Position numbers and translations under genes: made by a program. A DNA stretch of 33,522 nucleotides from Minisyncoccia bacterium (lineage in GTDB: Bacteria; Patescibacteriota; Minisyncoccia; Phycocordibacterales; UBA918). The notes under the pieces were generated by a model. The model was not told the DNA's origin, searched no databases, and was given only the letters and a program-made list of their open reading frames with translations. Numbering within the stretch: position 1 is the first letter of the stretch; each line of letters opens with the position of its first letter. Where the stretch lies: the NCBI GenBank assembly GCA_964229335.1, contig CAXRCZ010000012.1, forward strand, positions 1 to 33,522. Direction: 5' to 3'. Positions 471 to 24,523 of this stretch are shown here, piece by piece.

Positions 471-2063
471 ATGGAGAAACCTACCTTCTTTTTATATGCC
501 CGCAAGTCGACCGATGTCGAGGATAAGCAGGTACTAAGTATCGAAGCGCAGCTGGCGGAGTTGCGTTCGTTTGCCAAGCTGGAGGGGTTAGAGATAGCAG
601 AGGAGTTTGTGGAGAAAAAGAGTGCCAAGATGCCCGGCCGTCCAATTTTTAATGACATGATGAACCGTCTCGAGCGAAAAGAGGCAGTGGGCATTATCGC
701 TTGGCACCCAGACCGCCTCGCACGCAACTCAGTCGATGGGGGACGAGTTGTGTATCTGCTCGACTGCGAACATATTTCGATGCTGAAATTTCCAACTTTT
801 TGGTTTGAAAACACATCACAAGGAAAATTTATGCTTAGCATCGCCTTTGGGCAGAGTAAATACTACGTGGATTCACTTTCAGAAAACACCAAGCGCGGGC
901 TACGCCAAAAAGTTCGTCGCGGAGAATATCCAGGGCTGGCACCAATGGGATATATCAACGACTCGAGGACAAAGACGGTAGTCATTGATAAAAATAAAGC
1001 GCCAGCCATTACCGCGGCATTTGAATACTACGCTGAGGGTGAACATCGACTGGAAGACGTTGCGAACTTTTTGGCGAAACGAGGGATCAAAGCGCGTGGC
1101 GGAAAACCACTCCACCGAACGAGAATTACTTGTATCCTTTCCAATCCGTTCTACACGGGATTGTTTCAGTACGCAGGTGAGGTACACGAAGGTACTCACC
1201 AACCAATTGTGGCAAAGAAACTGTTTGATGAAGTGCAGGAAGTCATGCAAGAGCGCGGGCGACCGCATAAAAATTTTAAAAATGAGCCACAGGCATTTTG
1301 TGGACTGATGCGGTGTGGAGGTTGCGGCATGATGATTACTGCTGAACATAGGGTTAAAAAACAGAAGAACGGAAACGTGCATGAGTATGTGTATTATCGC
1401 TGTACCAAGAAATCAAAATTAAAATGTGATGAACCCTATGTTCGAGAAGAGGAGATAGATAGACAAGTCACAGCGTTACTAGAAACAGTTTCTTTGCCCG
1501 CGTCGTGGGCGAGGCAGTTGGAGATTATGCTGGCGCAAGAGGAAACTGCCTCAACCTACGACGCAACGGAACATCTCAAGGCAAGCAAGGAGCGTGAGCG
1601 GAGGATAGAACAAAAGCTTGAGCGTCTTCTCGATTCATACCTAGAGCAGGATATTGATCGGGAAGTATATCTCGAGAAGAAAGCAGCTTTGCTCAGTGAA
1701 AAGAAGTCACTGCAGGAGAAAAACGCTGCCTTGGAGACGTCCCGAATTGGCTGGCTCGAACCCATGCGAGAGTGGATACAAGTGGCAGAAAACCTGCCTG
1801 AAATTGTCCGCGATGGCACCCTTTTAAAGAAAAAGGTTGCAGCCAAAGAAATCTTTGGCTCGAACCTCCGCCTGCGCGCTCGCGAGCTGTTGCATTCCCC
1901 ACCGGAAAACGGCTCCGCAGAGCCACTTTCACCGTACTTTGTTTTGTCCTCGTTGCGCGCGAAGCGCGGTTCTATGACTGAAAGTCACATTCTGGGGCGG
2001 CTACCGGGAATCGAACCCGAACTTTCGGTACCACAAACCGATGCACTAACCGTTATACTATAG
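471..2063 (+). CDS. Large serine recombinase (resolvase + recombinase + zinc ribbon + coiled coil)
   Basis: YARKS catalytic Ser motif, DRLARN, LSNPFYTG, CGGCG...YYRC...C zinc ribbon, coiled coil; last 21 aa are encoded by the antisense strand of tRNA-His. Confidence 0.95.
   Translation: MEKPTFFLYARKSTDVEDKQVLSIEAQLAELRSFAKLEGLEIAEEFVEKKSAKMPGRPIFNDMMNRLERKEAVGIIAWHPDRLARNSVDGGRVVYLLDCEHISMLKFPTFWFENTSQGKFMLSIAFGQSKYYVDSLSENTKRGLRQKVRRGEYPGLAPMGYINDSRTKTVVIDKNKAPAITAAFEYYAEGEHRLEDVANFLAKRGIKARGGKPLHRTRITCILSNPFYTGLFQYAGEVHEGTHQPIVAKKLFDEVQEVMQERGRPHKNFKNEPQAFCGLMRCGGCGMMITAEHRVKKQKNGNVHEYVYYRCTKKSKLKCDEPYVREEEIDRQVTALLETVSLPASWARQLEIMLAQEETASTYDATEHLKASKERERRIEQKLERLLDSYLEQDIDREVYLEKKAALLSEKKSLQEKNAALETSRIGWLEPMREWIQVAENLPEIVRDGTLLKKKVAAKEIFGSNLRLRARELLHSPPENGSAEPLSPYFVLSSLRAKRGSMTESHILGRLPGIEPELSVPQTDALTVIL
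1861..1998. repeat. Right arm of 138-bp inverted repeat, inside recombinase 3' end, overlapping the tRNA 3' end by 6 bp (TGGGGC)
   Basis: Exact reverse complement of 138-275. Confidence 0.95.
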
Positions 2064-2068
2064 CCGCC
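1993..2068 (-). tRNA. tRNA-His (GTG) with G-1 and encoded CCA
   Basis: Minus strand GGCGGCTATAGTATAACGGTTAGTGCATCGGTTTGTGGTACCGAAAGTTCGGGTTCGATTCCCGGTAGCCGCCCCA: GCGGCTA/TAGCCGC acceptor stem, GTG anticodon, GGTTCGATTCC T-arm, G-1:C73. Confidence 0.96.
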
Positions 2069-4725: not shown

Positions 4726-6039
4726 ATGAATATAGAAATGATTCGCAAACGTGACGGTTCAACTCAATCGTTTAATATTGAGAAGATCGTCAGCGCTATT
4801 GCTAAAGCGTTTGCTGAAACAGGAGAGGGTAATCGAGAGACGGCACAAGAAGTAGCCGAAGTAGCCCACCAAAAGATAGTAGCTATGTGTGTCCAGGCTG
4901 GCACCGCAGCGGCTGATAGTCCGCTGGCTCAAAAATGTATCGACGGAGCACCAGCTGTGGAGGAGATTCAAGACTTGGTAGAGCAGGCCTTGATGGAAAA
5001 GGACTTTTTCACCACCGCCAAAAAATACATCATCTATCGCAACGAGCGCAAAAAGCTCCGCGAGCGCGACATCTTTGCTCGTCGCGTTAATTTGAAACCA
5101 TACGAATACCCAAACCTCTATGAGTACACCAACGCTGTCCGACACTCGTATTGGGTACATACTGAATTCAACTACACCTCTGACGTGCAGGATTTTCACG
5201 TCAATGTTAATGAGGTGGAACGTAGCGCTATCAAAAACTCAATGCTCGCCATTGCGCAAATCGAAGTCGCGGTAAAGACATTCTGGGGTGATATTTACAA
5301 AAAGATGCCCAAGCCAGAAATCGGTGCGGTAGGAGCCACTTTTGCGGAGTCAGAAGTGCGACACGCTGATGCGTATGCCCACCTTTTAGAAATCCTCGGT
5401 CTTAATGATGAGTTCAAGCGAGTCAAAAATATCCCAGTTATCCAAAAACGTATCGCCTACCTCGAAAAGACCATCGAACTATCTCGCACACAAGATAATA
5501 AAGACTACTTCAAATCAGTCCTTTTGTTCTCATTGTTTGTTGAGCATGTGTCACTCTTTTCACAATTCCTGGTGATGATGTCGTTCAATAAGTACAAGAA
5601 TCTATTCAAAGGCATGAGCAACGCTGTAGAAGCAACCTCTAAGGAAGAGCAAATTCACGGCATGTTCGGAATTGATGTCATAAACATCATCAAAGAAGAA
5701 CATCCAGAATGGTTTGATGAGGAATGTAACCAAATGATTATTGAATCGTGTCGCGAAGCCTATGAAGCCGAAGAGGGAATCGTTGACTGGATATTTGAAG
5801 CAGGTGAACTTGATTTCATGCCAGCAGCGAACGTAAAGGAATTCATTAAGCACCGCTTCAATAGCTCGCTGTCTGCTATCGGTCTGCCGCGCATCTTTGA
5901 CATCAACGAAGCGTTGCTTGAAGAAACTGACTGGTTTGACGCTGAGGTTATCGCTACCAAGCACGTCGACTTCTTTAACAAGCGATCAATCAACTACAAC
6001 AAGCGGTCAGCCAGTGTCACGAGTGACGACCTGTTCTAA
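4726..6039 (+). CDS. nrdB: Class I ribonucleotide reductase beta subunit with N-terminal ATP-cone
   Basis: IRKRDG...VEEIQDLVE...AKKYIIYR ATP-cone; metal ligands AQIE, ESEVRHADAY, FVE, KEEQIH; C-terminal DFF...Y. Confidence 0.93.
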   Translation: MNIEMIRKRDGSTQSFNIEKIVSAIAKAFAETGEGNRETAQEVAEVAHQKIVAMCVQAGTAAADSPLAQKCIDGAPAVEEIQDLVEQALMEKDFFTTAKKYIIYRNERKKLRERDIFARRVNLKPYEYPNLYEYTNAVRHSYWVHTEFNYTSDVQDFHVNVNEVERSAIKNSMLAIAQIEVAVKTFWGDIYKKMPKPEIGAVGATFAESEVRHADAYAHLLEILGLNDEFKRVKNIPVIQKRIAYLEKTIELSRTQDNKDYFKSVLLFSLFVEHVSLFSQFLVMMSFNKYKNLFKGMSNAVEATSKEEQIHGMFGIDVINIIKEEHPEWFDEECNQMIIESCREAYEAEEGIVDWIFEAGELDFMPAANVKEFIKHRFNSSLSAIGLPRIFDINEALLEETDWFDAEVIATKHVDFFNKRSINYNKRSASVTSDDLF

Positions 6040-6079
6040 AAGTGAGAACGGAGAGAAATTTCTCCCCGTTCTCACTTTT
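6038..6079. terminator. 20-bp near-perfect palindrome between nrdB and nrdA
   Basis: AAAAGTGAGAACGGAGAGAA-AT-TTCTCCCCGTTCTCACTTTT, followed by TATAAT at 6083-6088. Confidence 0.6.
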
Positions 6080-6125
6080 CGTTATAATGAATTTAAATTA
6101 CAAAATTAATTAACTTCCACTGTTT

Positions 6126-7808
6126 ATGAACCCATGGTACTGGTTGAACGAAAATAGCCGCGCTTTCCTAGCTAGAGGATATCTGGCTGAAGGTCAGACG
6201 GCCGAAGAACGAATAGATGTAATCGCGAAAGCGGCTGAAGAATACTTACAGGAAGATGGGTTCGCTGAAAAATTTACCGAGTACATGTCGAAGGGGTGGA
6301 TTTCACTAGCTTCACCGGTCTGGTCTAACTTCGGTATCGATAAAGGGCTACCAATTAGTTGTTTTGGTTCATATGTCGATGATGACATGGGAAATATTCT
6401 CTATACCAACGCAGAAGTTGGTATGCAGAGCAAGCATGGTGGAGGTTGTTCTGGTTTCTTTGGCGCCCTTCGCCCGCGTGGTGCTGCTATTGGTAATGGT
6501 AACGGGTATTCTTCAGGTGCTGTGCACTTCATGCAGTTGTTTGAGACACTCATAAACGTAGTGAGCCAAGGATCGGTTCGCCGAGGACACTTCTCTCCCT
6601 ATCTGCCAGCGGAGCACGATGACATCATGGAATTCCTAGATATCGGGACCGAAGGAAATCCAATTCAAAAACTCACTCACGGTGTCACTGTGGGGGACGA
6701 ATGGATGCAATCAATGGTTGATGGTGACGAAGCCAAGCGTAAGGTATGGGCACGCATCATTCAGCGTAGGGGAGAAATGGGGTATCCGTACATCATGTTT
6801 AGCGATACCGCCAACAACAACACAGTAGACGTCTACAAAGACAAAGGACTGCGCATCCACGCCAGCAATATGTGTAGCGAGATTATGTTACCAAGCAAGA
6901 CTGACTGGTCATTTGTATGTTGTCTCTCTTCACTCAACTTGCGTCACTACGATGAGTGGAAAGACACCGACCTGGTAGAAACCATGATTAGTTTCCTCGA
7001 TGCGGTAATGGAAGACTTTATCGTCAAGCTAGAACGCATGCGTGATCACGAAGATGTACAAAAACAACAATCCTTTCACTTTATGGAACGGGCGTACAAC
7101 TTTGCTAAAGAAAACCGTGCTCTTGGTCTTGGAGTGCTGGGATACCACTCACTTTTGCAGGACAAGCGAATTGCGTTTGCTAGTGGCGAGGCCGCTACTT
7201 TAAACGAAGAAGTGTTCTCACTCATCAAGACCAAGGCCGATAGTGCAACCAAAGCATTGGCAGAGAAATTAGGTGAACCAGCAGTGCTTGAAGGGTACGG
7301 ACGACGCAATACAACTCTACTCGCCATTGCGCCAACCACTTCTTCTGCCTTTATTCTCGGTCAGGTATCGCAGGGAATCGAACCAATTTGGTCAAACTGT
7401 TATGTCAAAGACGTGGCCAAAATGAAGGTCACTATCAAGAACCCTACCCTCAAAGCATTACTAGCTGAAAAAGATAAGGATGACAAAGCTACCTGGGATA
7501 GCATTCGAGACAATGACGGCTCGGTACAACACCTCGACTGTCTATCTGATGAAGAAAAAGAAGTCTTCCGGACCTTTGCCGAAATCGATCAACTAGCTAT
7601 TATCGAACAAGCAGCCACCCGACAGAAACATATCGATCAAGCGCAATCACTCAATATTATGGTGGCACCAGATACGCCAGTAAAAGACATCAACAACCTG
7701 TACCTCGAAGCTTGGAAACAGGGAGTCAAGACACTTTACTACCAACACTCGATGAATGCTGCCCAGCAGATGGTGCGTCGCAAGCTAGCCGAACAAGAAA
7801 AGAAGTAA
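6126..7808 (+). CDS. nrdA: Class I ribonucleotide reductase alpha subunit (no ATP-cone)
   Basis: PISCF, SNMCSE, FVCCLSS, IAPTTSS and TLYY catalytic motifs. Confidence 0.95.
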   Translation: MNPWYWLNENSRAFLARGYLAEGQTAEERIDVIAKAAEEYLQEDGFAEKFTEYMSKGWISLASPVWSNFGIDKGLPISCFGSYVDDDMGNILYTNAEVGMQSKHGGGCSGFFGALRPRGAAIGNGNGYSSGAVHFMQLFETLINVVSQGSVRRGHFSPYLPAEHDDIMEFLDIGTEGNPIQKLTHGVTVGDEWMQSMVDGDEAKRKVWARIIQRRGEMGYPYIMFSDTANNNTVDVYKDKGLRIHASNMCSEIMLPSKTDWSFVCCLSSLNLRHYDEWKDTDLVETMISFLDAVMEDFIVKLERMRDHEDVQKQQSFHFMERAYNFAKENRALGLGVLGYHSLLQDKRIAFASGEAATLNEEVFSLIKTKADSATKALAEKLGEPAVLEGYGRRNTTLLAIAPTTSSAFILGQVSQGIEPIWSNCYVKDVAKMKVTIKNPTLKALLAEKDKDDKATWDSIRDNDGSVQHLDCLSDEEKEVFRTFAEIDQLAIIEQAATRQKHIDQAQSLNIMVAPDTPVKDINNLYLEAWKQGVKTLYYQHSMNAAQQMVRRKLAEQEKK

Positions 7809-11660: not shown

Positions 11661-11785
11661 GTTGCTTTAATTCCAGCAGTTTGCTACAAATGAGCCCGCG
11701 TTTAATCACGCGGGTTCTTTGTAAGAGGCCGAGCAAGCTCGCGTCTAAGCTTTTGGAAAATATTTGTTCTAGAGAAAGGGGCAGA

Positions 11786-12163
11786 ATGTCCACAACACAT
11801 ATAGGAAAAAGACCCAATCACCGACTAATTGCGGTTGTGCATATGGTGGGTGGGGAGATTTACCATGTGGTAGCTAAACAACAGCTACACCAACTGGGCA
11901 GAAAGTATGACGAAGAGGTTCCGGTCTTGCTCAAGCTAGCGTTTGGGTTCACTGGATTCTCCAGTCAGCATTGTCTTGAAACATTGCCTCGGTACAAAAC
12001 TTTCATCCATGAAGGTGAAGAGTGGCATCCGAGGCATGTCGATTGGACCATAACGGTCAGTCACAGTGCCTTGGTTGAGTTAGGTCACATCGATACCAGC
12101 CAATGTGATATTTGGCCGGAGGAGGAGTCTCCTTTTCGGGATCTAATTCGACAAGAGAGCTGA
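11786..12163 (+). CDS. Hypothetical protein
   Basis: AAAGGGG SD before ATG 11786; hairpins on both sides; no family recognised. Confidence 0.55.
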   Translation: MSTTHIGKRPNHRLIAVVHMVGGEIYHVVAKQQLHQLGRKYDEEVPVLLKLAFGFTGFSSQHCLETLPRYKTFIHEGEEWHPRHVDWTITVSHSALVELGHIDTSQCDIWPEEESPFRDLIRQES

Positions 12164-12494: not shown

Positions 12495-13001
12495 ATGAAT
12501 CGCGAAACAATTTTGTTGCTTGGCTACCTAACCAATGAAGATGGTTCTGTAGATCGTCCAGTGATAGGAATGCCTTTTTTATCAAGCACTTTAAATATAA
12601 CTCGACATGCCGACCAAGCTAATTATTATGATGAGATTGAAAATCGGCTCGGTCTTAAAGAGGAAGAAACTCCAAGTAACGATGTGCCAGCGAAGTCATT
12701 CGCTGCTAAATCTTCAGGAGCCACAATAATTTATGACTGCAAGGTCAAAATTGTTCCTAAAAGAGGAGGTCACATACCCAAACAGTTTGCTCTAGTGGTG
12801 GTGAAGCCCGGAATGCGCGAGCGGGTGCGAGAATCATTAAAGGGTGGAATTGTTTGGGTCAGCACCGGGGATTTGATCGAATACCTCGAGGAGATGCGTC
12901 GCAAGCGAGCTCGTCTTTACCGAACTTTCATTATGAACGCTGAGCATGACAGTATGGGTGTATTTGTAGATGTTCTCAAGACTTCTGAGGTGGGCTTATA
13001 G
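12495..13001 (+). CDS. Hypothetical protein
   Basis: 168-aa ORF, AAGGGG SD, TGCTATAAA upstream. Confidence 0.6.
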   Translation: MNRETILLLGYLTNEDGSVDRPVIGMPFLSSTLNITRHADQANYYDEIENRLGLKEEETPSNDVPAKSFAAKSSGATIIYDCKVKIVPKRGGHIPKQFALVVVKPGMRERVRESLKGGIVWVSTGDLIEYLEEMRRKRARLYRTFIMNAEHDSMGVFVDVLKTSEVGL

Positions 13002-13076: not shown

Positions 13077-13787
13077 ATGCAATATATTCCCATCAAAACT
13101 GACCGCTTACAGCCACCGCAAGATGACCTATTTTCAGCCTTAAACAAAGCACTTACTTCTCTAGAAGAAGGAGACATTGTGGTCATATCTTCCAAAGTGG
13201 TCGCGATTCATGAAGGAAACTGCTTGCCTATTACTGATGAGCCAAAAAGTGAATTGGTGGAGAGAGAGGCTGAGTTAGTCATTCCACGCACCTATAAACG
13301 GCTACCTCTAACCATTCGGCACGGAGCATTTATAGGCAATGCGGGTATTGATGTGAGTAATGCCAATGGCCATTACATTTTGCTGCCGAAAGATCCGTTT
13401 GCGAGCGCCAAGAATATTTATGTGCACCTAAAGGAACAGTTCAATTTAGAAAAACTAGGAGTGATTATTACTGACAGTCATTCTTCGCCACTCCGTCGAG
13501 GGGCGACGGGAATATCGATTGGGTTCTGGGGGTTTGAACCGATTCGTAATTATGTTGGCAAGCCAGATTTATTTGGTCGACCACTCAAGGTAGAGGTGGC
13601 AAACTTGGTAGACGGAATTGCTGCTGGGGCAGTGGTAGTGACCGGTGAAGCTGATGAAGGTACGCCAGTAGTAATCGTACGTGGCGTACCAGCTATTGAA
13701 TACACTGAAGAGAATCGTAAAGGCACGGTCATCATGCCCTTTTCTGTCGACTACTTCCGCGTGCTTTACGAACGCTTCCTCTCGTAG
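13077..13787 (+). CDS. CofE-like gamma-glutamyl ligase (F420-0 ligase family; putative alternative folylpolyglutamate synthase)
   Basis: GDIVVISSKVV, NAGIDVSN, GVIITDS, DLFGRPL, GEADEGTPVV. Confidence 0.85.
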   Translation: MQYIPIKTDRLQPPQDDLFSALNKALTSLEEGDIVVISSKVVAIHEGNCLPITDEPKSELVEREAELVIPRTYKRLPLTIRHGAFIGNAGIDVSNANGHYILLPKDPFASAKNIYVHLKEQFNLEKLGVIITDSHSSPLRRGATGISIGFWGFEPIRNYVGKPDLFGRPLKVEVANLVDGIAAGAVVVTGEADEGTPVVIVRGVPAIEYTEENRKGTVIMPFSVDYFRVLYERFLS

Positions 13788-14296
13788 TCAATCCATTGAT
13801 AGGAAATATCCTTGTGCTCACGAGGTGGATGTCTTTCAATAATCTCAAAATCATCTTCAAACTCTGGAAAAAAAGTATCAGCCTCTGGTGCATCATCAAT
13901 CCAGGTGACATAGAGTTTTTGTACCCGCGGCAGCATCAGTTGATACAACTGTGCACCGCCTCCAATATGAATTTCTACCGGTTTTTCATTCTGTGCGAGC
14001 GACACCGCTTCTTCTACCGAGTGAGCCACTAACACGCCATCGTGATTGTACGAAGTATCTCTCGTTACTACGATGTTGGTGCGGTTGGGTAGTGGTTTAC
14101 CCAGAATATCGAGTATCGACTCAAAGGTCTTGCGCCCCATAATAATTGGATGGCCTGAAGTAAGTGCTTTGAATCGCTTCAAATCATCAGGAATGTGCCA
14201 CAAGAGACTATTGTCTCTGCCCAAAGCCCTGTCTTGCTTTGACATGGCTACGACGATGGTGAGGGGTGGGTTTTTCTGAAAGAGTTTTTTGAGCAT
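13766..14296 (-). CDS. folA: Dihydrofolate reductase
   Basis: LLWHIPDDLKRFK, IMGRKTFESI, LPNRTNIVVT, IGGGAQLY, DTFFP; ATG 14296 preferred. Confidence 0.95.
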   Translation of the reverse strand: MLKKLFQKNPPLTIVVAMSKQDRALGRDNSLLWHIPDDLKRFKALTSGHPIIMGRKTFESILDILGKPLPNRTNIVVTRDTSYNHDGVLVAHSVEEAVSLAQNEKPVEIHIGGGAQLYQLMLPRVQKLYVTWIDDAPEADTFFPEFEDDFEIIERHPPREHKDISYQWIDYERKRS

Positions 14297-14499
14297 ACTG
14301 AAGTTACTTTGCAGCTCGCTGCAGCCAAAATCTTCCATGGTAGGTCGATTTTGGCTAAGCGCCTGCATACTTTCGCAATAATCGAGCTACGCTCTCTTTT
14401 GCTCAAGCATTATGCCATAGGGTGTCTTGGTTGTCGTTTTGTGACCGCTAGCATAGTCGGTATAATGCATATATTACTTAGCTTCACTACTATTTTCCT

Positions 14500-15174
14500 A
14501 TGTCACACTTTGAGATTGAAATAAAAAGCTTGCTCGGGGACGAGTCCAATGCAGTACGACTCAAGGAGAAAATGTGCGAGCTTGACCCCAACTGCCAAGT
14601 TGTGGCTAGTAACAAACAGCTCAACCACTACTTTGAAGGGGGAGATATAGAAGATTTGTATACACAAGTCAAACACTTATTTGACGATGCACAACAAACA
14701 AAACTACGAACTGTAATTGAGCGAGGCAGTGAATTTTCTATCCGGTCGCGGCAGAAAAATGACGAAGTGTTTTTGGTTGTAAAAGCATCGGTAGATGAAG
14801 GCACTAGTGCCAACACAGTAAAACGGATGGAGTTTGAAGAATTAGTCAATGTGTCACTAGATGAGCTTGACGAACTCCTCCTGGCGGCTGGTTTTGAGTA
14901 CCAAGCCAAGTGGTCTCGCGAACGCGAAGAGTACGCGTACAAAGGAGCGAGCGTATGTTTGGATAAAAATGCTGGCTACGGCTATCTCGCTGAGTTTGAA
15001 AAACTAGTTCACGACGAAGCCGAGGTAGATAAAGTGCGAGAAGAAATAGACGAGCTCATGAATGAGCTCGAAGTCGTCGAACTTGGTCAAGATCGTCTGG
15101 CTCGTATGTTTGATCACTACAACCAAAACTGGCCCCAGTATTACGGCACCAATAAAGTATTTGTAATTGAGTAA
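14500..15174 (+). CDS. CYTH / triphosphate tunnel metalloenzyme domain protein
   Basis: N-terminal EIEIK (ExExK), NHYF, IRSR, REREEY, LD...G.LAEFE. Confidence 0.85.
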   Translation: MSHFEIEIKSLLGDESNAVRLKEKMCELDPNCQVVASNKQLNHYFEGGDIEDLYTQVKHLFDDAQQTKLRTVIERGSEFSIRSRQKNDEVFLVVKASVDEGTSANTVKRMEFEELVNVSLDELDELLLAAGFEYQAKWSREREEYAYKGASVCLDKNAGYGYLAEFEKLVHDEAEVDKVREEIDELMNELEVVELGQDRLARMFDHYNQNWPQYYGTNKVFVIE

Positions 15175-15175
15175 T

Positions 15176-15721
15176 ATGTTTTTATCTGACGTTGATATCA
15201 AGGCAGGAGTAGAAAGCGGAGCAATCACTATCGAGCCCTTTAATGAAGATAATTTAAGCGTCGCCAGCTACGATGTGACACTTGGCAACGAGTTCGAAAT
15301 AGTCGACCGCCACCAAATTGAAGCCTCAGATCCAGCGCGCAAAATTTATCCTGCAACTCGCAAGATTGAGATACCTGATGGAGGAGAGTTCGTGCTGCAC
15401 CCTGGAGAGAATGTGCTCGGTAAGCAAAAGGAATTTATTGGCGTTGACCTTGAGCACTTGATACTACTCTCTGGCAAAAGTAGCTTGGCACGAATCGGTC
15501 TGGTAGTTCACAACACCGCCATGCTCTTTAACCCAGGACACAAGTTCTATCCCACTTTTGAGTTAGTTAATAGCAGCAACATCCCGATTATTCTCCGGCC
15601 GGGTATGGAGATAGCCCAACTCATTTTTGCCAAGTTACAAACGCCTGCCGGCAAAAGTTATGAGGACGCTGGTCGCTATGACAGTACCAACTCAGATCAT
15701 TTTAAGGAACGTAAACAATAA
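15176..15721 (+). CDS. dcd: dCTP deaminase (atypical motif 3)
   Basis: ASYDVTLG, GKSSLARIGLVVH, NPGH..PTFEL, GMEIAQLIF; ATG 1 nt after the CYTH stop. Confidence 0.88.
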   Translation: MFLSDVDIKAGVESGAITIEPFNEDNLSVASYDVTLGNEFEIVDRHQIEASDPARKIYPATRKIEIPDGGEFVLHPGENVLGKQKEFIGVDLEHLILLSGKSSLARIGLVVHNTAMLFNPGHKFYPTFELVNSSNIPIILRPGMEIAQLIFAKLQTPAGKSYEDAGRYDSTNSDHFKERKQ

Positions 15722-15724
15722 ACT

Positions 15725-16705
15725 ATGCAAAACAAACATCCAGAATATCAATATCTTGATTTAGTCCAAGAGATTTTAGAAAAGGGCAGCAAGCAGGTTG
15801 ATGCTCAGTCAAAAGACGTGACCTATAGTTTGTTTGGTAAACAGATGCGCTTTGATTTGAGTGAAGGTCTACCGCTTCTGACTACTAAAAAAGTGTATTG
15901 GAAAGGAGTCTTGCATGAGCTGTACTGGTTTTTATCCGGACAAACTAATATCAAATATCTAGTCGATAACAACATTCATATTTGGGACGACTATCCACTT
16001 CGTATTTACAATGACAAGCGTGAATCAGAAGGGTGGCCAGAGCTAAGCAAGGAAGAGTTTATCGCTAAGATAGAAAGTGATTCAGAGTTTGCTAAACAGC
16101 ATGGAGAACTACCGAGGATTTATGGTGAGATGTGGCGCAATTGGCCACGCAGAGATGGGGGGGGTATTGATCAACTACAGTGGGTGGTCGACGAGATAAA
16201 AGCTGATCCAGGATGTCACAATGCTATCGTAACCAGCTGGAATCCAGAATATCTATACGCTATGGCCAAACCAGGAGAAGCTTGCCGATTCCCAATTTGC
16301 CACAATATGTTTCAGGTCAATATAAACCAAGGAAAGTTGTGCTTGCAGCTATACCAACGATCAGCCGACATTTTCTTAGGAGTACCATTCAATATCGCCA
16401 GCTACGCTCTGCTTACTATAATTTTGGCAAAAATTACTGGTTATGAGCCAGGCGAATTTGTTCACACTTTTGGCGATGTTCACATCTATGAAAACCATAT
16501 CGAACAAGCTAAAGAGCAAATAAGTCGCACTCCTTACGCGTTTCCAAAAGTTACTCTTAGCGACGAGGTAACTTCACTAGAATCATTCCGTCCTGAGCAT
16601 GTCACGTTAGAAAAGTATGAGTCACACCCACCAATAAAGGCCAAAATGGCAGTGGTAGGTGGATTTCACGCCGACCTTCACGCCGACCGAGACACTAATT
16701 CATAA
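15725..16705 (+). CDS. thyA: Thymidylate synthase family protein (atypical phosphate site)
   Basis: RFDLSEGLPLLTTKK, ELYWFL, PICH (catalytic Cys), YQRSADIFLGVPFNIASY, GDVHIY. Confidence 0.9.
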   Translation: MQNKHPEYQYLDLVQEILEKGSKQVDAQSKDVTYSLFGKQMRFDLSEGLPLLTTKKVYWKGVLHELYWFLSGQTNIKYLVDNNIHIWDDYPLRIYNDKRESEGWPELSKEEFIAKIESDSEFAKQHGELPRIYGEMWRNWPRRDGGGIDQLQWVVDEIKADPGCHNAIVTSWNPEYLYAMAKPGEACRFPICHNMFQVNINQGKLCLQLYQRSADIFLGVPFNIASYALLTIILAKITGYEPGEFVHTFGDVHIYENHIEQAKEQISRTPYAFPKVTLSDEVTSLESFRPEHVTLEKYESHPPIKAKMAVVGGFHADLHADRDTNS

Positions 16706-16709
16706 CTCT

Positions 16710-17978
16710 ATGGATAGATACAACCACATCAAACAGCAAGACGAAGAGGTGTATAAAGCCCTGATGGGTGAGGAGAAGCGGGAACGAGTCGGCATAGAGC
16801 TGATTCCTAGTGAGAACTACGTCTCACAAGCCGTGCTCGAAGCCAACGGTAGCATCTTCACCAACAAATATTCTGAAGGATATCCAGGAAAGCGCTACTA
16901 TGGGGGACAAGAATTTACCGACCAAGTAGAACGACTAGCGATTGAGCGAGCGTGCCAGTTATTTAATTGTAAATACGCCAATGTTCAGCCACTAGGCGGA
17001 GCCGCTGCTAATGTCGCAATGTATTTTGCACTTATGAAGCCTGGCGATACAGTCCTTGGTATGGATCTCTCACACGGCGGGCATCTGACCCACGGCCATC
17101 CTACTACCGCCATTAATCAAGTATTCAATTTTGTGCGGTACAAAATGAAAGACGTGGATACGGGAGAGATAGATTATGATCATCTACGCGAAATGGCTTT
17201 AGAGCATAAGCCAAAAATTATTTTGGCGGGCTACTCAGCCTACACACGTGAACTCGACTACGCCAAATTCAAAGCCATTGCTGATGAGGTCGGAGCATAC
17301 ACAGTAGCTGACATAGCGCACATCACGGGGTTGATTGCTGGGGGAGTACACAAAAATCCGTTTGATTACGGATTTGATGTCATGACGATGACAACTCATA
17401 AATCACTACGTGGTCCACGCGGCGGCATGATTTTGGTTCGGGAAGATAAAGAGCTTGCTAAGAAGATAGATAAAGCGGTATTCCCAGGTATGCAGGGTGG
17501 TCCGCATATGCATATAGTGGCCGCCAAGGCAGTAGCATTTAAAGAAGCGCTTGCCCCAAGCTTCAAAGATTACACCGCGCAAATCCTCAAGAATGCCAAA
17601 GCTATGGAAGCAGTATTTTTACGCGAAGGGGTGCGCTTGCTTGGCGGGGGAACCTCAAATCACATGTTGCTAGCTGATGTCTACGGCTCGCTCGGTATTA
17701 GCGGACAAGAAGCCGAAACTGTTCTCGATAGTGTTGGTATTACTCTGAATAAGAATATGATTGCTGACGAACCACGAACCGCTCTAGACCCATCAGGCAT
17801 ACGGTTTGGCACACCAGCTATGACCACTAGGGGTATGAAAGAAGCAGAAGCGACAGAGCTGGCAGAAATCATGATTGACGTGCTGCGCCAACCTAATGAT
17901 TCAGCTGTGCTAGAAGTAGCGAAAGAAAAGGTAACGACACTCGCCAACAATTTCCCAGTCCCCGTCACATTCGTCTAG
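16710..17978 (+). CDS. glyA: Serine hydroxymethyltransferase
   Basis: LIPSEN, NKYSEGYPGKRYYGG, HGGHLTHG, TTHKSLRGPRGG; ATG 16710. Confidence 0.97.
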   Translation: MDRYNHIKQQDEEVYKALMGEEKRERVGIELIPSENYVSQAVLEANGSIFTNKYSEGYPGKRYYGGQEFTDQVERLAIERACQLFNCKYANVQPLGGAAANVAMYFALMKPGDTVLGMDLSHGGHLTHGHPTTAINQVFNFVRYKMKDVDTGEIDYDHLREMALEHKPKIILAGYSAYTRELDYAKFKAIADEVGAYTVADIAHITGLIAGGVHKNPFDYGFDVMTMTTHKSLRGPRGGMILVREDKELAKKIDKAVFPGMQGGPHMHIVAAKAVAFKEALAPSFKDYTAQILKNAKAMEAVFLREGVRLLGGGTSNHMLLADVYGSLGISGQEAETVLDSVGITLNKNMIADEPRTALDPSGIRFGTPAMTTRGMKEAEATELAEIMIDVLRQPNDSAVLEVAKEKVTTLANNFPVPVTFV

Positions 17979-17992
17979 TTGTAATTTCTAAT

Positions 17993-18032
17993 AATAACTA
18001 CCGCAAAGCATAACAACTTTGCGGCAGTTATT
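17993..18032 (+). terminator. Terminator after glyA
   Basis: AATAACTACCGCAAAG...CTTTGCGGCAGTTATT. Confidence 0.65.
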
Positions 18033-20950: not shown

Positions 20951-23900
20951 ATGAATAAGAAAGTACATGGTCGTGAAAACGACTCAGTGAAAGTAGAAGA
21001 GAGCGCTCCCACTAGTGAGGTGGCATTGCGAGAAGAAGCCGTGCTCAGCTATTGGCGCGAGCAAGATATTTTTAACAAAAGTATAAAACATCCTGCAGGT
21101 ATAGGATTGGAGGGAGACAAGGTGAATGGCGAAGCCGGAGAAGGTGGCCTGGGCCATTTTGTTTTTTATGATGGACCACCATTTGCGACTGGTTTGCCGC
21201 ACTACGGACATATCTTAGCCGGTACTATCAAAGATGCCATTCCACGCTTTTGGACGATGAATGGCTATCGAGTGCGCCGGCAGTGGGGATGGGATTGTCA
21301 CGGATTGCCACTAGAGAATATTGTAGAGAAAGAGTTAGGATTGGCCACCAAGCGAGACATTGAAGAGTATGGCATCAAGAATTTTAATGAAAAAGCGCGT
21401 GGCATGGTGCTACGTTACGCTGACGATTGGCGCGAAATAATCCCACGCTTTGGTCGGTTTGTAGATATGCAAAACGACTACAAAACTATGGATAGCTCAT
21501 ACACCGAAAGTGTCTGGTGGGCATTCAAACAGCTACATGAAAAAGGACTAGTATACGAAGGGTTCAAGACTATGCACCTATGTCCTCGCTGTGGCACGAC
21601 CCTATCTAACTTTGAGGTCAATCAAGGTTACAAAGATATAAAAGATATTGCTGTCACCGTAAAGCTACCACTCCTTGATGAAGCTGGAGAAGTTTCTGAT
21701 ACCAGTTTGCTCGTCTGGACCACTACTCCATGGACGTTGCCGGGGAACACAGTAGCAGCGGTTCATAATGAAATTGACTATGTCACTGTCAAAATTGTCG
21801 TTGAGGGACAAGCAGAAAAAGTAATTGTAGCTAAAAGCAGATTGTCGCAGCTGGGTAATGTTGAATATGAAATTATTGATGAATACAAAGGCGCAGCCTT
21901 AGTGGGTAAAAAATATAAACCACCGTTCCCATGGCTCACAGAAGAAGACTTCAGTGGCAAAGAAAACGCGTGGACTATCTATCACGCTGACTATGTAGAA
22001 GAGGGCGAGGAAGGCACTGGCGCCGTGCATATTGCTCCCGCCTATGGAGAAGACGACATGAATTTAGCCAAGGAGAATGATGTTCCAATCGTCCATCACG
22101 TCGATGAAAGCGGGCATTTCAAACCATTCGTGACTGACTTTGCCGGACAGCTCGTCAAACCACGCGATGATGATGCGAGTGAGGTGACTCACCTCGATGC
22201 TGATATTGAAGTTGTTAAAGCGCTTAAAGAACGAGGAGTGTTATTTAAGAAAGAAAACATCACTCACAGTTACCCGCATTGTTGGCGGTGTGAGACACCG
22301 CTTCTCAACTACGCGACCACATCGTGGTTTGTGGAAGTAACTAAGATTCGTGACCAACTCGTTAGCATCAATCAGACAGTTAACTGGGTACCCGAACACG
22401 TCGGAAAGAATCGTTTTGGCAAATGGTTGGAAGGAGCGCGTGACTGGGCGGTCAGTCGCCAGCGGTATTGGGGAGCACCGTTGCCGATTTGGAAAAATCC
22501 AGAGACAGGGGAGTATAAAGTCCTGGGTTCACTTAGTGAACTACAAGAGTATGTACCAAACCGCCAGAATAAATACTTCTTTATGCGTCATGGCGAGAGT
22601 GAATCAAATGCCAGCAACGTGGTACAAACCATCATAGATAATCCAAATGCCCTCACAGAAACAGGAAAAGAGCAGGTCAAACAAGCAGTCAAACAGCTTC
22701 GGGAGGCCGGTATAACCCGAATCATCACCTCGCCATTTGAACGTACGGTAGAAACTGCCAAGTTACTACAAGAAGAACTAGAATTACCTAACGAAGCTGT
22801 TCAGCTTGATGAAAGATTGCGAGAGATTGCCATCCCAGAACTTGAAGGTGAATCAAACACCAAGTATCGAGAATTAGTTCAAACAGGAAAAGATTGGAGC
22901 CAAGCAAAAACCGCCAATGGAGAAAGTTGGAGTGATGTGCGTAATCGAGTGGGTGATTTCTTGTACGATATCAATACACAGTACGAAAACGAAACCTTAC
23001 TAATTGTAGGACATAACGCACCACTTAGAATGGTGTCGGCCATTACCAATGGAGACAAGTTGACTGAGAAAGACTTTGATCACGACGATGAAGGAGCTCG
23101 TTATGAAAATGCCGAAGTACGCCAGATAGACTTCACGCCGCTTCCACACAACGAGCAGTATGAACTCGATTTTCACCGACCGTATATTGATGAGTTTGAA
23201 CTCTATGAAGATGGGGTTTTGTTGGAGCGAGTACCAGATGTGTTTGATTGTTGGTTTGAGAGTGGCTCTATGCCATACGCGCAACACCACTATCCGTTTG
23301 CGATGGATGAAGCTAATTTTACAAATGAGCATTTCCCAGCACAATTTATTGCCGAAGGACTTGATCAAACTCGGGGTTGGTTTTATTCAATGATGGTGCT
23401 GGGGGTAGCTCTGTTTGAGAAAAGTCCATACGAAAACGTCATCGTCAACGGGTTGGTCTTAGCCGAAGATGGCAAAAAGATGAGTAAGTCTCTTCAGAAC
23501 TACCCGGATCCCATCGAGCTGGCGAACCGCGTCGGAGCTGATTCAATTCGTTTCTACCTATTATCATCACCAATCATTAAAGGCGAAGACCTTAACTTCT
23601 CCGAAAAGGACGTCACCGAACTACAACGCAAGAATATCGGCCGGCTGCACAATGTACTCGCTATGTATGAGATGTACCAGGATGGAACAAAGGCTAACGG
23701 TGATTCAAGAAACGTTCTCGACCGCTGGATTATCACTCGTCTCAACCAGCTCATTTCTGAAGTGACTGATGGGTACAAGAATTACGAACTCGATAAAGCC
23801 ACCAGACCGATTACTGATTTTATCGATGACCTTTCGGTGTGGTATCTCCGTCGCAGTCGAGACCGGCTCAAACACGATGATTTAGACGACAAGCAAGCCA

Positions 23901-24523
23901 CGCTAGCCACCCTGCGGTATGTACTACAAAATCTGGCCAAGTGCATGGCGCCAGCGATGCCGTTTTATGCTGAACACCTATACCAAGCTGTGAAAGGCGT
24001 GACAGATGTCGAAAGTGTGCATCTTACGCGCTGGCCACAGCCAGACACTATTGATACTGAATTACTTGCTCAAATGGAGACTACCCGAGAAATTGTCACC
24101 ACTGCGCTAGAGAAGAGAACCAAGGCAGGTATTAAAGTACGACAACCAATCAAGAGCGTCAGCGGACCACAGCTACCAGAAGAGCTGCAAACGGTCATAA
24201 CCGATGAGTTGAACGCAAAAAGCTACCAAGCAGCCAATGAGGTAGCAATAGATCAAAATCTCACTCCCGAACTCCTAGCCGAAGGAGCAGTTCGAGAACT
24301 TATGCGAGCCATCCAGAGTAAGCGAAAGAATAACTCACTCGAACCAAATGACACCATTGCGCTCACCATTGAGACGAGCGAATCAGGTCAGAATGCTATC
24401 AATGAGCATCAAGCCCTTCTTACAAAAACTGTCGGCGCAGATGCAATAGAATTTACTTCTACCGAAGGAGAGACAATAGTGGCCAATGACTACGAATTCA
24501 CCTTCTCGTTTAACAAACTATAA
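20951..24523 (+). CDS. ileS: Isoleucine--tRNA ligase (type 2-like) with inserted histidine phosphatase domain
   Basis: DGPPFATGLPHYGH, GWDCHGLP, WTTTPWTLP, DQTRGWF, KMSKS; inserted RHGE domain ~22571-23130. Confidence 0.96.
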   Translation: MNKKVHGRENDSVKVEESAPTSEVALREEAVLSYWREQDIFNKSIKHPAGIGLEGDKVNGEAGEGGLGHFVFYDGPPFATGLPHYGHILAGTIKDAIPRFWTMNGYRVRRQWGWDCHGLPLENIVEKELGLATKRDIEEYGIKNFNEKARGMVLRYADDWREIIPRFGRFVDMQNDYKTMDSSYTESVWWAFKQLHEKGLVYEGFKTMHLCPRCGTTLSNFEVNQGYKDIKDIAVTVKLPLLDEAGEVSDTSLLVWTTTPWTLPGNTVAAVHNEIDYVTVKIVVEGQAEKVIVAKSRLSQLGNVEYEIIDEYKGAALVGKKYKPPFPWLTEEDFSGKENAWTIYHADYVEEGEEGTGAVHIAPAYGEDDMNLAKENDVPIVHHVDESGHFKPFVTDFAGQLVKPRDDDASEVTHLDADIEVVKALKERGVLFKKENITHSYPHCWRCETPLLNYATTSWFVEVTKIRDQLVSINQTVNWVPEHVGKNRFGKWLEGARDWAVSRQRYWGAPLPIWKNPETGEYKVLGSLSELQEYVPNRQNKYFFMRHGESESNASNVVQTIIDNPNALTETGKEQVKQAVKQLREAGITRIITSPFERTVETAKLLQEELELPNEAVQLDERLREIAIPELEGESNTKYRELVQTGKDWSQAKTANGESWSDVRNRVGDFLYDINTQYENETLLIVGHNAPLRMVSAITNGDKLTEKDFDHDDEGARYENAEVRQIDFTPLPHNEQYELDFHRPYIDEFELYEDGVLLERVPDVFDCWFESGSMPYAQHHYPFAMDEANFTNEHFPAQFIAEGLDQTRGWFYSMMVLGVALFEKSPYENVIVNGLVLAEDGKKMSKSLQNYPDPIELANRVGADSIRFYLLSSPIIKGEDLNFSEKDVTELQRKNIGRLHNVLAMYEMYQDGTKANGDSRNVLDRWIITRLNQLISEVTDGYKNYELDKATRPITDFIDDLSVWYLRRSRDRLKHDDLDDKQATLATLRYVLQNLAKCMAPAMPFYAEHLYQAVKGVTDVESVHLTRWPQPDTIDTELLAQMETTREIVTTALEKRTKAGIKVRQPIKSVSGPQLPEELQTVITDELNAKSYQAANEVAIDQNLTPELLAEGAVRELMRAIQSKRKNNSLEPNDTIALTIETSESGQNAINEHQALLTKTVGADAIEFTSTEGETIVANDYEFTFSFNKL

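Follow-up and report, generated by a model that had tools for sequence, protein, structure and literature searches.

The window analysed here is a stretch of 33,522 nucleotides that constitutes contig C12 of the 741-kb genome of a Minisyncoccia bacterium (Patescibacteriota; completeness 98%, contamination 7.5%). It harbors a run of four genes in the order CYTH-dcd*-thyA*-glyA, with intergenic gaps of 1, 3 and 4 nucleotides and with folA in divergent orientation, as a first-pass annotation of the same DNA had described. The asterisks mark a dCTP deaminase with an altered motif 3 and a thymidylate synthase with an altered phosphate site. It is proposed, with slightly less than even confidence, that CYTH-dcd*-thyA* is a swappable thymine module of Patescibacteria that works at the diphosphate level and methylates deoxyuridine diphosphate (dUDP) instead of the monophosphate (dUMP).

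In this route Dcd* would deaminate dCTP to dUTP, and CYTH would remove the gamma-phosphate to yield dUDP and double as a guard that holds dUTP low. Methylation of dUDP by ThyA* would give dTDP, to be phosphorylated to dTTP by Ndk, and folate would be recycled by GlyA and FolA. Class I ribonucleotide reductases act on diphosphates, and the one encoded in the window would thus also feed dUDP directly, besides supplying dCDP. As neither dUMP nor dTMP would be needed, dut and tmk could be lost. The diphosphate route would explain why dut and tmk are lost together and why tmk persists with an ordinary synthase, as well as the motifs of CYTH and the rebuilt phosphate site of ThyA*. Observed are the gene content, the residue changes, the linkage and the co-loss of tmk and dut, from which we infer all substrates and products. 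In a broader form, to which we give an even chance, a ThyA clade that methylates dUDP (or dUTP) and is fed by a tunnel-fold dUTP phosphatase would provide a third de novo route to dTTP without dUMP or dTMP, rendering dUTPase and Tmk dispensable across many Patescibacteria. The genes of the run and folA are as follows.

13766..14368, minus strand: folA, dihydrofolate reductase, divergent from CYTH (Pfam match)
14500..15174, plus strand: CYTH/triphosphate tunnel enzyme of 224 residues (PF01928), predicted dUTP gamma-phosphatase
15176..15721, plus strand: Dcd*, dCTP deaminase with NPGH as motif 3 (ATG 15176; PF22769/TIGR02274 above cut-off), predicted to release dUTP
15725..16705, plus strand: ThyA*, long-form thymidylate synthase of the HN subtype (TIGR03284 above cut-off)
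16710..17978, plus strand: glyA, serine hydroxymethyltransferase (ATG 16710; SHMT family match), supplier of methylene-tetrahydrofolate

The longest frame of dcd begins at TTG 15167, and this 184-residue frame is used for residue numbering; that of glyA begins at GTG 16659. The Pfam match of folA starts only at residue 36, so that the true start is probably downstream of 14368.

Residue changes in the three enzymes

ThyA* matches TIGR03284 with 358 bits (cut-off 108), and its structural model, with a predicted local distance difference test score (pLDDT) of 91, has thymidylate synthases as top fold matches (template modelling score, TM, 0.81-0.87). Four arginines bind the phosphate in ThyA, namely Arg21, 126', 127' and 166 in the numbering of PMC6005164 (Table 2). 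Alignment with the Lactobacillus casei enzyme shows that Arg23 is replaced by Ala27, Arg178 by His165 and Arg179 by Asn166, whereas Arg218 is kept as Arg212. Thus three of the four are absent from the window protein, which bears out the earlier description of an altered, arginine-less ThyA. Cys192, Arg212, Ser213, Asn223, His253 and Tyr255 are kept. In 120 ThyA* rows C192, R212, N223, H253 and Y255 are invariant and position 166 is never an arginine; the protein is changed at the phosphate end alone, with the catalytic, uracil-binding and 3'-hydroxyl-binding residues unaltered. The chain also extends 16 residues beyond the usual terminal Val into a Gly-Gly tail that is present in 96-100% of ThyA* rows, compared to 0 of 25 ordinary ThyA rows. 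This tail is often lysine-rich and is poorly predicted (pLDDT 60 and below). Two subtypes, HN, to which the window protein belongs, and RKSY, form one clade with a Shimodaira-Hasegawa-like approximate likelihood ratio test support of 98 in a quick tree that retained the trait columns.

Charge reversal at Arg126/127 is described to abolish dUMP binding (PMC5981203), and even a conservative mutation of Arg126' to impair catalysis (PMC6005164). A natural loss of a phosphate arginine is reported, and termed the first natural case, for the VAAP-clade ThyA of Vibrio parahaemolyticus, which still uses dUMP with a higher Km (PMC6005164). However, that enzyme lost a single arginine, at the Arg127' position, whereas ThyA* lost or changed three, including Arg126'.

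Dcd* scores 133.9 bits against TIGR02274 (cut-off 92.8). Its best sequence matches are the bifunctional Dcd:dUTPases of Mycobacterium tuberculosis (2QXX) and Methanocaldococcus jannaschii (1OGH) and the monofunctional Escherichia coli Dcd (1XS1), with which it shares the Glu, KSS/RSS and HxTA. The first-pass annotation had reported a retained catalytic Glu and an NPGH motif 3, and the alignment places these at Glu132 (PTFEL) and N122-P-G-H125. The enzymes of M. tuberculosis and E. coli contain DPGF or DPGW at the latter position; in Dcd* the Asp of bifunctional Dcd:dut and trimeric dUTPases is thus an Asn, and the aromatic residue that follows is a His. The match to PF00692 reaches 19.4 bits, below the cut-off of 22. 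The kcat of M. tuberculosis Dut, 1.22 per second, falls to 0.0013 per second upon the matching Asp-to-Asn substitution (PMC5519681, Table 1), which makes formation of dUMP by Dcd* unlikely. In G334 and G349, which have no CYTH, Dcd* accompanies intact dut and tmk and ordinary synthases; it is therefore most simply a dUTP-releasing deaminase. Its predicted role is probably limited to this activity.

The CYTH protein carries ExExK (residues 5-9), S80-x-R82-x-R84 and E165-x-E167. Across 65 sequences 45 columns are invariant, including a family-specific C-terminal helix (197-214) that is rich in invariant aromatics and, judged from its sequence, may bind the nucleoside. In the fold comparison, made solely with Foldseek, the top matches were the archaeal SaTTM (Saci_0718, PDB 7NSD) and PH1819 (PDB 2EEN; TM 0.52-0.58). 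S80, R82 and R84 align with A54, R56 and R58 of SaTTM and E165 and E167 with E135 and E137, and all five are invariant. The protein hence combines the tunnel fold with ExExK, small-x-R-x-R and ExE, like the gamma-phosphatase type of tunnel metalloenzymes. It differs from SaTTM and PH1819 by an identity of only about 20%, a two-helix insert, an Asn at the presumed DxY site, the invariant aromatic helix and its thymidylate-operon context. The invariant N42-H-Y44 was assigned to DxY by position alone and lies outside the SaTTM alignment; an NxF variant in AtTTM3 and a mild effect of D38N are on record for this motif (PMC8233210).

According to Vogt et al. (PMC8233210), gamma-phosphate hydrolases are assigned the set of small-x-R-x-R and ExE, and triphosphatases cleave the beta-gamma bond with the organic moiety toward the C-terminal plug helix. 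Cyclases show HFxxxxExExK, loss of the first Arg of xxRxR and ExA instead of ExE. The motif set of CYTH thus predicts dUDP as the product from dUTP, and the protein is predicted to cleave the gamma-phosphate. Databases label proteins of this kind as adenylate cyclases, and the window CYTH shares the CYTH fold and a weak TIGR00318 match (37.4 bits, below the cut-off of 57.95) with the class IV adenylate cyclase CyaB. However, the HFxxxxExExK spacing of CyaB is absent, with HF directly preceding ExExK and varying, and the gatekeeper Arg and the second Glu of ExE are retained (R82 and E167 are invariant). The W/YxRxR of thiamine triphosphatases is likewise missing, since S80 is invariant. An Atlas search returned CYTH and hypothetical clusters only. 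A cyclic dUMP intermediate was rejected because class IV cyclase motifs are absent from CYTH and ThyA* retains the 3'-hydroxyl binders.

Linkage of the module and loss of tmk and dut

Genome searches found no trimeric or dimeric dUTPase, tmk, tdk, dNK, thyX or dCMP deaminase in the window genome. The lack of dut that had been noted for the cluster extends to the whole genome, where the sole PF00692 match is Dcd itself. Likewise, tblastn with 80 queries from the same family (tmk, dut, long Dcd, deaminase and ThyX) gave 0 matches, with a positive control that worked. The genome possesses Ndk, uracil glycosylase, CTP synthase, the class I ribonucleotide reductase and, as nucleoside monophosphate (NMP) kinases, Adk-, Cmk- and PyrH-like proteins and one uncharacterised small kinase (AAA_18/UPF0200-like, on contig C3). 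In this genome an ordinary ThyA would have neither an evident supply of dUMP nor an evident way to pass on dTMP.

The linkage of CYTH to these genes, which the first-pass annotation had named as a point to check, is conserved. In 80 genome loci fetched by ThyA, all with an altered synthase, CYTH adjoins thyA in 37, in a fixed position beside dcd* and thyA*; 36 of these 37 have Dcd, with NPGH in 35, whereas among the 43 loci without CYTH a single one, at a contig end, has NPGH. Among 80 metagenome loci fetched by CYTH, some of which are near-copies, NPGH was found in all 69 readable Dcd (72 present), and all 56 classifiable ThyA (60 present) were arginine-poor, 28 being HN and 28 RKSY. The adjacency of CYTH and ThyA* is not due to chance. 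In most loci dcd* directly precedes thyA*. Within the ThyA* clade CYTH was gained or lost at least 8 times in the tree. The dUTPase-like cluster c2 was seen in 27 loci and a bacterial dut in 3; CYTH is absent from every one of these. The exchange is visible at one site in genus g60, where G139 and G084 harbor dcd-thyA(RR)-folA-kinase-tmk-dut and G202 and G222 CYTH-dcd*-thyA*-folA-kinase, the small kinase being retained in all four.

These data bear on the earlier suggestion that CYTH fills the step between dUTP and ThyA, as a dUTPase of new fold or by forming a differently phosphorylated intermediate. That CYTH takes the place of a dUTPase-fold gene is upheld by the 27 c2 loci, all without CYTH, and the differently phosphorylated intermediate is favoured by the loss of Tmk and the gamma-cleavage motifs; cyclisation is unlikely. 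The accompanying idea of a lock-step co-evolution of three enzymes is not supported in that form, co-evolution being loose. Of 94 HN-type rows of ThyA*, 38 have no CYTH (a few of the loci stop close to the gene), G334 and G349 have Dcd* but not CYTH, and CYTH is found with other synthases in G353, G408, G107, G047, G079 and G203. A strict rule that CYTH never occurs with an ordinary synthase was accordingly rejected as false (G353 and others), as was one that it never occurs with a dut-like gene (six family loci). Phage origin or a role in a modified DNA base was also discarded: viral contigs held no CYTH relative, and the HN and RKSY motifs were found in 0 of 69 viral ThyA loci.

Gene content was profiled in 78 genomes (50 of the 80 locus genomes and 28 from the class sample), and Tmk was called present at E values of at most 1e-9, several weak matches being divergent Tmk-like proteins. 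CYTH was found in exactly 29 of them, those with CYTH beside ThyA*. None of the 29, and none of 4 further ones, has a second PF00692 gene. Tmk is present in all 24 genomes with ordinary ThyA and in 19 of 25 with ThyA* but no CYTH, compared to 9 of 29 with CYTH. As a class baseline, in 250 genomes, Tmk was detected in 88 of 101 with ThyX, 38 of 41 with close ThyA and 31 of 71 with neither. The anticorrelation of CYTH with dut and tmk that the first-pass annotation had proposed looking for was seen, and tdk is absent from all 29 CYTH genomes but rare overall (3/78). A nucleoside route from dUTP via deoxyuridine to thymidine was rejected because of this scarcity of tdk and because G000 lacks dNK.

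The same trend was seen among close relatives (130 genomes of the family, all but G000 chosen at a completeness of at least 90%, and 99 of the genus). Tmk is missing in 45 of 67 family genomes with CYTH versus 15 of 63 without, and in 37 of 55 versus 3 of 44 in the genus; Fisher tests on these counts overstate significance, as kin are not independent. The 67 family CYTH loci comprise 62 with ThyA*, 3 that end too early, G353 with ordinary ThyA and G408 with ThyX. All 43 readable loci that are CYTH-positive and Tmk-negative have ThyA*. In 20 of 48 CYTH-free, Tmk-positive family genomes the same site is occupied by ordinary ThyA, ThyX-like genes (four of which were checked) or other synthases, and never by ThyA*. 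Where CYTH is clustered with a two-arginine synthase or ThyX (G353, G408, G107), tmk was kept in all three. The module is scattered over a GlyA tree built from 79 family loci (8 of 86 fetched loci had no full glyA), with 17 changes of state. Among 8 independent pairs, loss of Tmk accompanied the module 5.7 times and went the opposite way 0.0 times (median p 0.03; the non-module rows were picked for having Tmk). The small NMP kinase was found in 25 of 29 genomes with CYTH, in 11 of 25 with ThyA* but no CYTH and in 8 of 24 with ordinary ThyA, its query having been taken from a CYTH genome, which favours its kin.

Competing routes

Compared with the canonical dcd-dut-thyA-tmk route (E. coli type; ThyA of L. 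casei and Enterococcus faecalis, 1LCA and 3UWL), the module shares a dCTP deaminase, the ThyA fold, the catalytic Cys, the uracil-selecting Asn, the 3'-hydroxyl binders and the folate cycle of FolA and GlyA. It differs in having neither dUTPase nor Tmk, in the replacement of three of four phosphate arginines, in the C-terminal Gly-Gly extension and in the presence of CYTH in the operon.

Several observations weigh against methylation of dUDP. Genomes with ThyA* but no CYTH mostly keep Tmk (19/25) together with a dUTPase-like gene, which is a normal dUMP setup; the diphosphate route requires that ThyA* in these genomes also accepts dUMP or gets dUDP through Tmk. The dUTPase-like c2 also adjoins ThyX and occurs with ordinary ThyA, and 9 of the 24 genomes with ordinary ThyA likewise have no clear trimeric dUTPase. 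Of the 62 family genomes that combine CYTH with ThyA*, 19 keep a Tmk, and Tmk is absent from 40 of 71 synthase-free class genomes. The small NMP kinase present in 25 of 29 CYTH genomes could act on dTMP in its place. In G260 a dCMP-deaminase-like gene accompanies CYTH and ThyA* and Dcd is absent; in G047 and G079 a gene of this kind occurs with CYTH and another type of synthase. dCMP-deaminase-like enzymes normally yield dUMP. On the ThyA tree the test of independent pairs did not reach significance (of 6 pairs, 2.1 went the same way, 0.1 went the opposite way and 3.7 showed no difference; 6 of 81 labelled genomes had no row in the tree). Finally, arginine loss alone would not favour a more charged substrate, and that the Gly-Gly/Lys tail forms a new site for the beta-phosphate is speculation.

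The foremost competing explanation, which is unlikely but deserves to be taken seriously, is that CYTH is a dUTP pyrophosphatase of new fold, that ThyA* methylates dUMP with a rebuilt phosphate site, and that the AAA_18/UPF0200-like kinase or Cmk replaces Tmk. It fits the mutual exclusion of CYTH and dUTPase-fold genes (0/29, 0/4 further; 27 c2 loci all without CYTH), the usual presence of Tmk where ThyA* lacks CYTH (19/25), and G353, which combines CYTH, Dcd* and ordinary ThyA and in which the only other dUTPase found was a degenerate dut copy, within about 390 of 848 kb scanned. The substitute kinase is suggested by a weak match of the small kinase to T4-type dNMP kinase (E 0.0085), by its position inside thymidylate operons and its frequency in CYTH genomes (25/29). 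A precedent is described for Pseudomonas putida KT2440, a genome without canonical tmk in which a T4-type kinase replaces Tmk (PMC10653934). There, however, dTMP is made and the substitute kinase is shown, whereas here the loss of tmk tracks the synthase/CYTH module and not the candidate kinase: in family f54 the kinase is present in all six genomes tested, but tmk is lost only in the two with the module. The motifs of CYTH, moreover, predict cleavage between the beta- and gamma-phosphates. A plain dUMP producer should also pair freely with ordinary ThyA, but this was seen in only 1 of 64 readable family loci, and that locus, in G353, also has two Tmks and a gene weakly MazG/PRA-PH-like (below the cut-off).

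Direct methylation of dUTP to dTTP by ThyA*, with Dcd* deprived of its hydrolytic Asp so as to deliver intact dUTP and CYTH trimming surplus dUTP to dUDP, is improbable. It would explain the loss of tmk and dut equally well, and it agrees with the position of dcd* immediately before thyA* in most loci and with the frequently lysine-rich ThyA* tail. Yet it needs a standing dUTP pool despite the uracil glycosylase, and CYTH would compete with its companion synthase, beside which it is found in 62 of 64 readable family loci.

Quite improbable is a transferase function, in which CYTH would pass phosphate or pyrophosphate of dUTP on to dTMP and thereby replace both dUTPase and Tmk, with ThyA* using dUMP. 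In an even class sample 7 of 251 genomes have CYTH at E values below 1e-70, three of them with ThyA*, and 6 of the 7 lack Tmk across ThyA*, a synthase fusion and ThyX. The CYTH fold also includes VTC4, which is a transferase and was among the matches of the fold search. However, no tunnel enzyme is known to us that carries out a transfer from one nucleotide to another, all three clusters in which CYTH is grouped with a two-arginine synthase or ThyX retain Tmk, and both Tmk-free fusion synthases have themselves lost one arginine.

It is very improbable that CYTH is a general triphosphatase (for example of inorganic triphosphate, which SaTTM, the closest solved relative, prefers according to PMC8233210) and a mere passenger while the host supplies part of the thymine nucleotides and dut and tmk decay, as might be read from the 40 of 71 synthase-free class genomes without Tmk and from the diverged CYTH copy of G203 outside thymidylate clusters; against this stand the 45 invariant columns including the aromatic helix, the fixed position beside dcd* and thyA*, the mutual exclusion with intact dUTPases and the intact, conserved ThyA*-FolA-GlyA cycle, which would be a dead end.

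If the diphosphate route is correct, a synthase acting on dUDP would break two statements at once, that dUMP is the obligate de novo precursor of dTTP (PMC5519681) and that Tmk is essential in all domains (PMC10653934). The CYTH family, whose physiology is described as largely unknown (PMC8233210), would gain a defined metabolic job. The route would further explain how two enzymes came to be dropped from reduced genomes, and many 'adenylate cyclase' labels would be corrected. If CYTH is instead a dUTP pyrophosphatase, it would be a dUTPase of new fold. A literature search turned up neither a publication on this module nor one on a synthase that methylates dUDP, with subscription journals mostly outside its reach.

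Related clusters and other features of the window

The c2 proteins (for example L037:4910-5449) are a widespread archaeal-type dUTPase-like family of thymidylate clusters without the deaminase Glu; in 51 of 64 sequences read the motif-3 Asp is replaced by Pro, Gln, Ala or Ser. As c2 is also found with ThyX and ordinary ThyA, it was rejected as a specific partner of ThyA*. CYTH and dcd are separated by a HAD hydrolase gene in some relatives (L006, L007, L010 and L046; 8 of 80 metagenome loci).

Six family loci with CYTH and ThyA* contain a dut-like gene that lacks the Ser-Gly motif and the C-terminal arm, and a second Tmk type travels along. A short dUTPase-like protein without these two features is paired with a second Tmk type, as a conserved unit, in L391-L394, L396-L398, L409 and L419. 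In G353, CYTH and Dcd* are accompanied by ordinary ThyA, two Tmks, the degenerate dut and the weakly MazG/PRA-PH-like gene, which is also present in the CYTH-free G364 and G348. A 136-residue protein of this kind is encoded between two tmk genes beside ordinary ThyA (L392:3910-4374, L409:4965-5375 and L419:6658-7068) and is a candidate all-alpha dUTPase.

CYTH also occurs in other settings. G047 and G079 lack Tmk and encode an MtrA-ThyA-DUF4346 fusion that has a single arginine. In G107, CYTH is accompanied by ThyX, Tmk, a long Dcd and a fusion with two arginines, and the diverged CYTH copy of G203, a genome with ThyX but without Tmk, is not linked to any thymidylate cluster. Among MtrA-ThyA-DUF4346 fusions (L369-L371, L374-L379) all four with two arginines adjoin tmk, and four of five with one arginine have no Tmk. 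A further divergent ThyA family has VAPCH or VVPCH at the catalytic Cys and mostly one arginine at the pair (L293-L302, L304, L307, L411, L421 and L423). It usually adjoins a 280-residue deaminase-like gene, with a cytidylyltransferase-like gene in the two loci checked, and may represent another non-standard thymine route; Tmk is missing in 11 of 18 genomes with distant ThyA. If ThyA* does bypass dUMP and dTMP, other arginine-poor synthase families of Patescibacteria may have come to the same bypass on their own.

Further features of the window are listed below. Promoter-type consensus matches numbered 9, with 6.1 expected.

4726..7808, plus strand: class I ribonucleotide reductase, small and large subunits (family match)
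13077..13787, plus strand: CofE/FolC2-like gamma-glutamyl ligase, convergent on folA, an optional module neighbour
14409-14437, opposite (minus) strand: promoter-like match facing folA (consensus match alone)
14439..14466, plus strand: sigma-70-like promoter match before CYTH (consensus match alone)
18001..18024, plus strand: terminator-like hairpin directly after glyA (consensus match alone)

The small subunit of the ribonucleotide reductase has an N-terminal ATP cone, and none was seen on the 560-residue large subunit. The nearest profile to the CofE-family ligase is TIGR04132 (206 bits, below the cut-off of 350), and the gene often adjoins folA in relatives. Two open reading frames (ORFs) between rplK and this ligase (12495-13001 and 11681-12163) have no Pfam match. 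An Rfam search of the window detected a tRNA and nothing else. At 20951-24523 a class I tRNA synthetase of the Ile/Leu/Val type with 1190 residues harbors a histidine-phosphatase domain inserted at residues 543-703. A large serine recombinase (471-2067 region) ends over a tRNA gene (1996-2067, minus strand), which suggests the edge of an integrated element. In G000, two Nudix-like ORFs of equal length and score lie 1.4 kb apart on contig C7 (62436-62915 and 63802-64281), possibly as a duplication or an assembly repeat.

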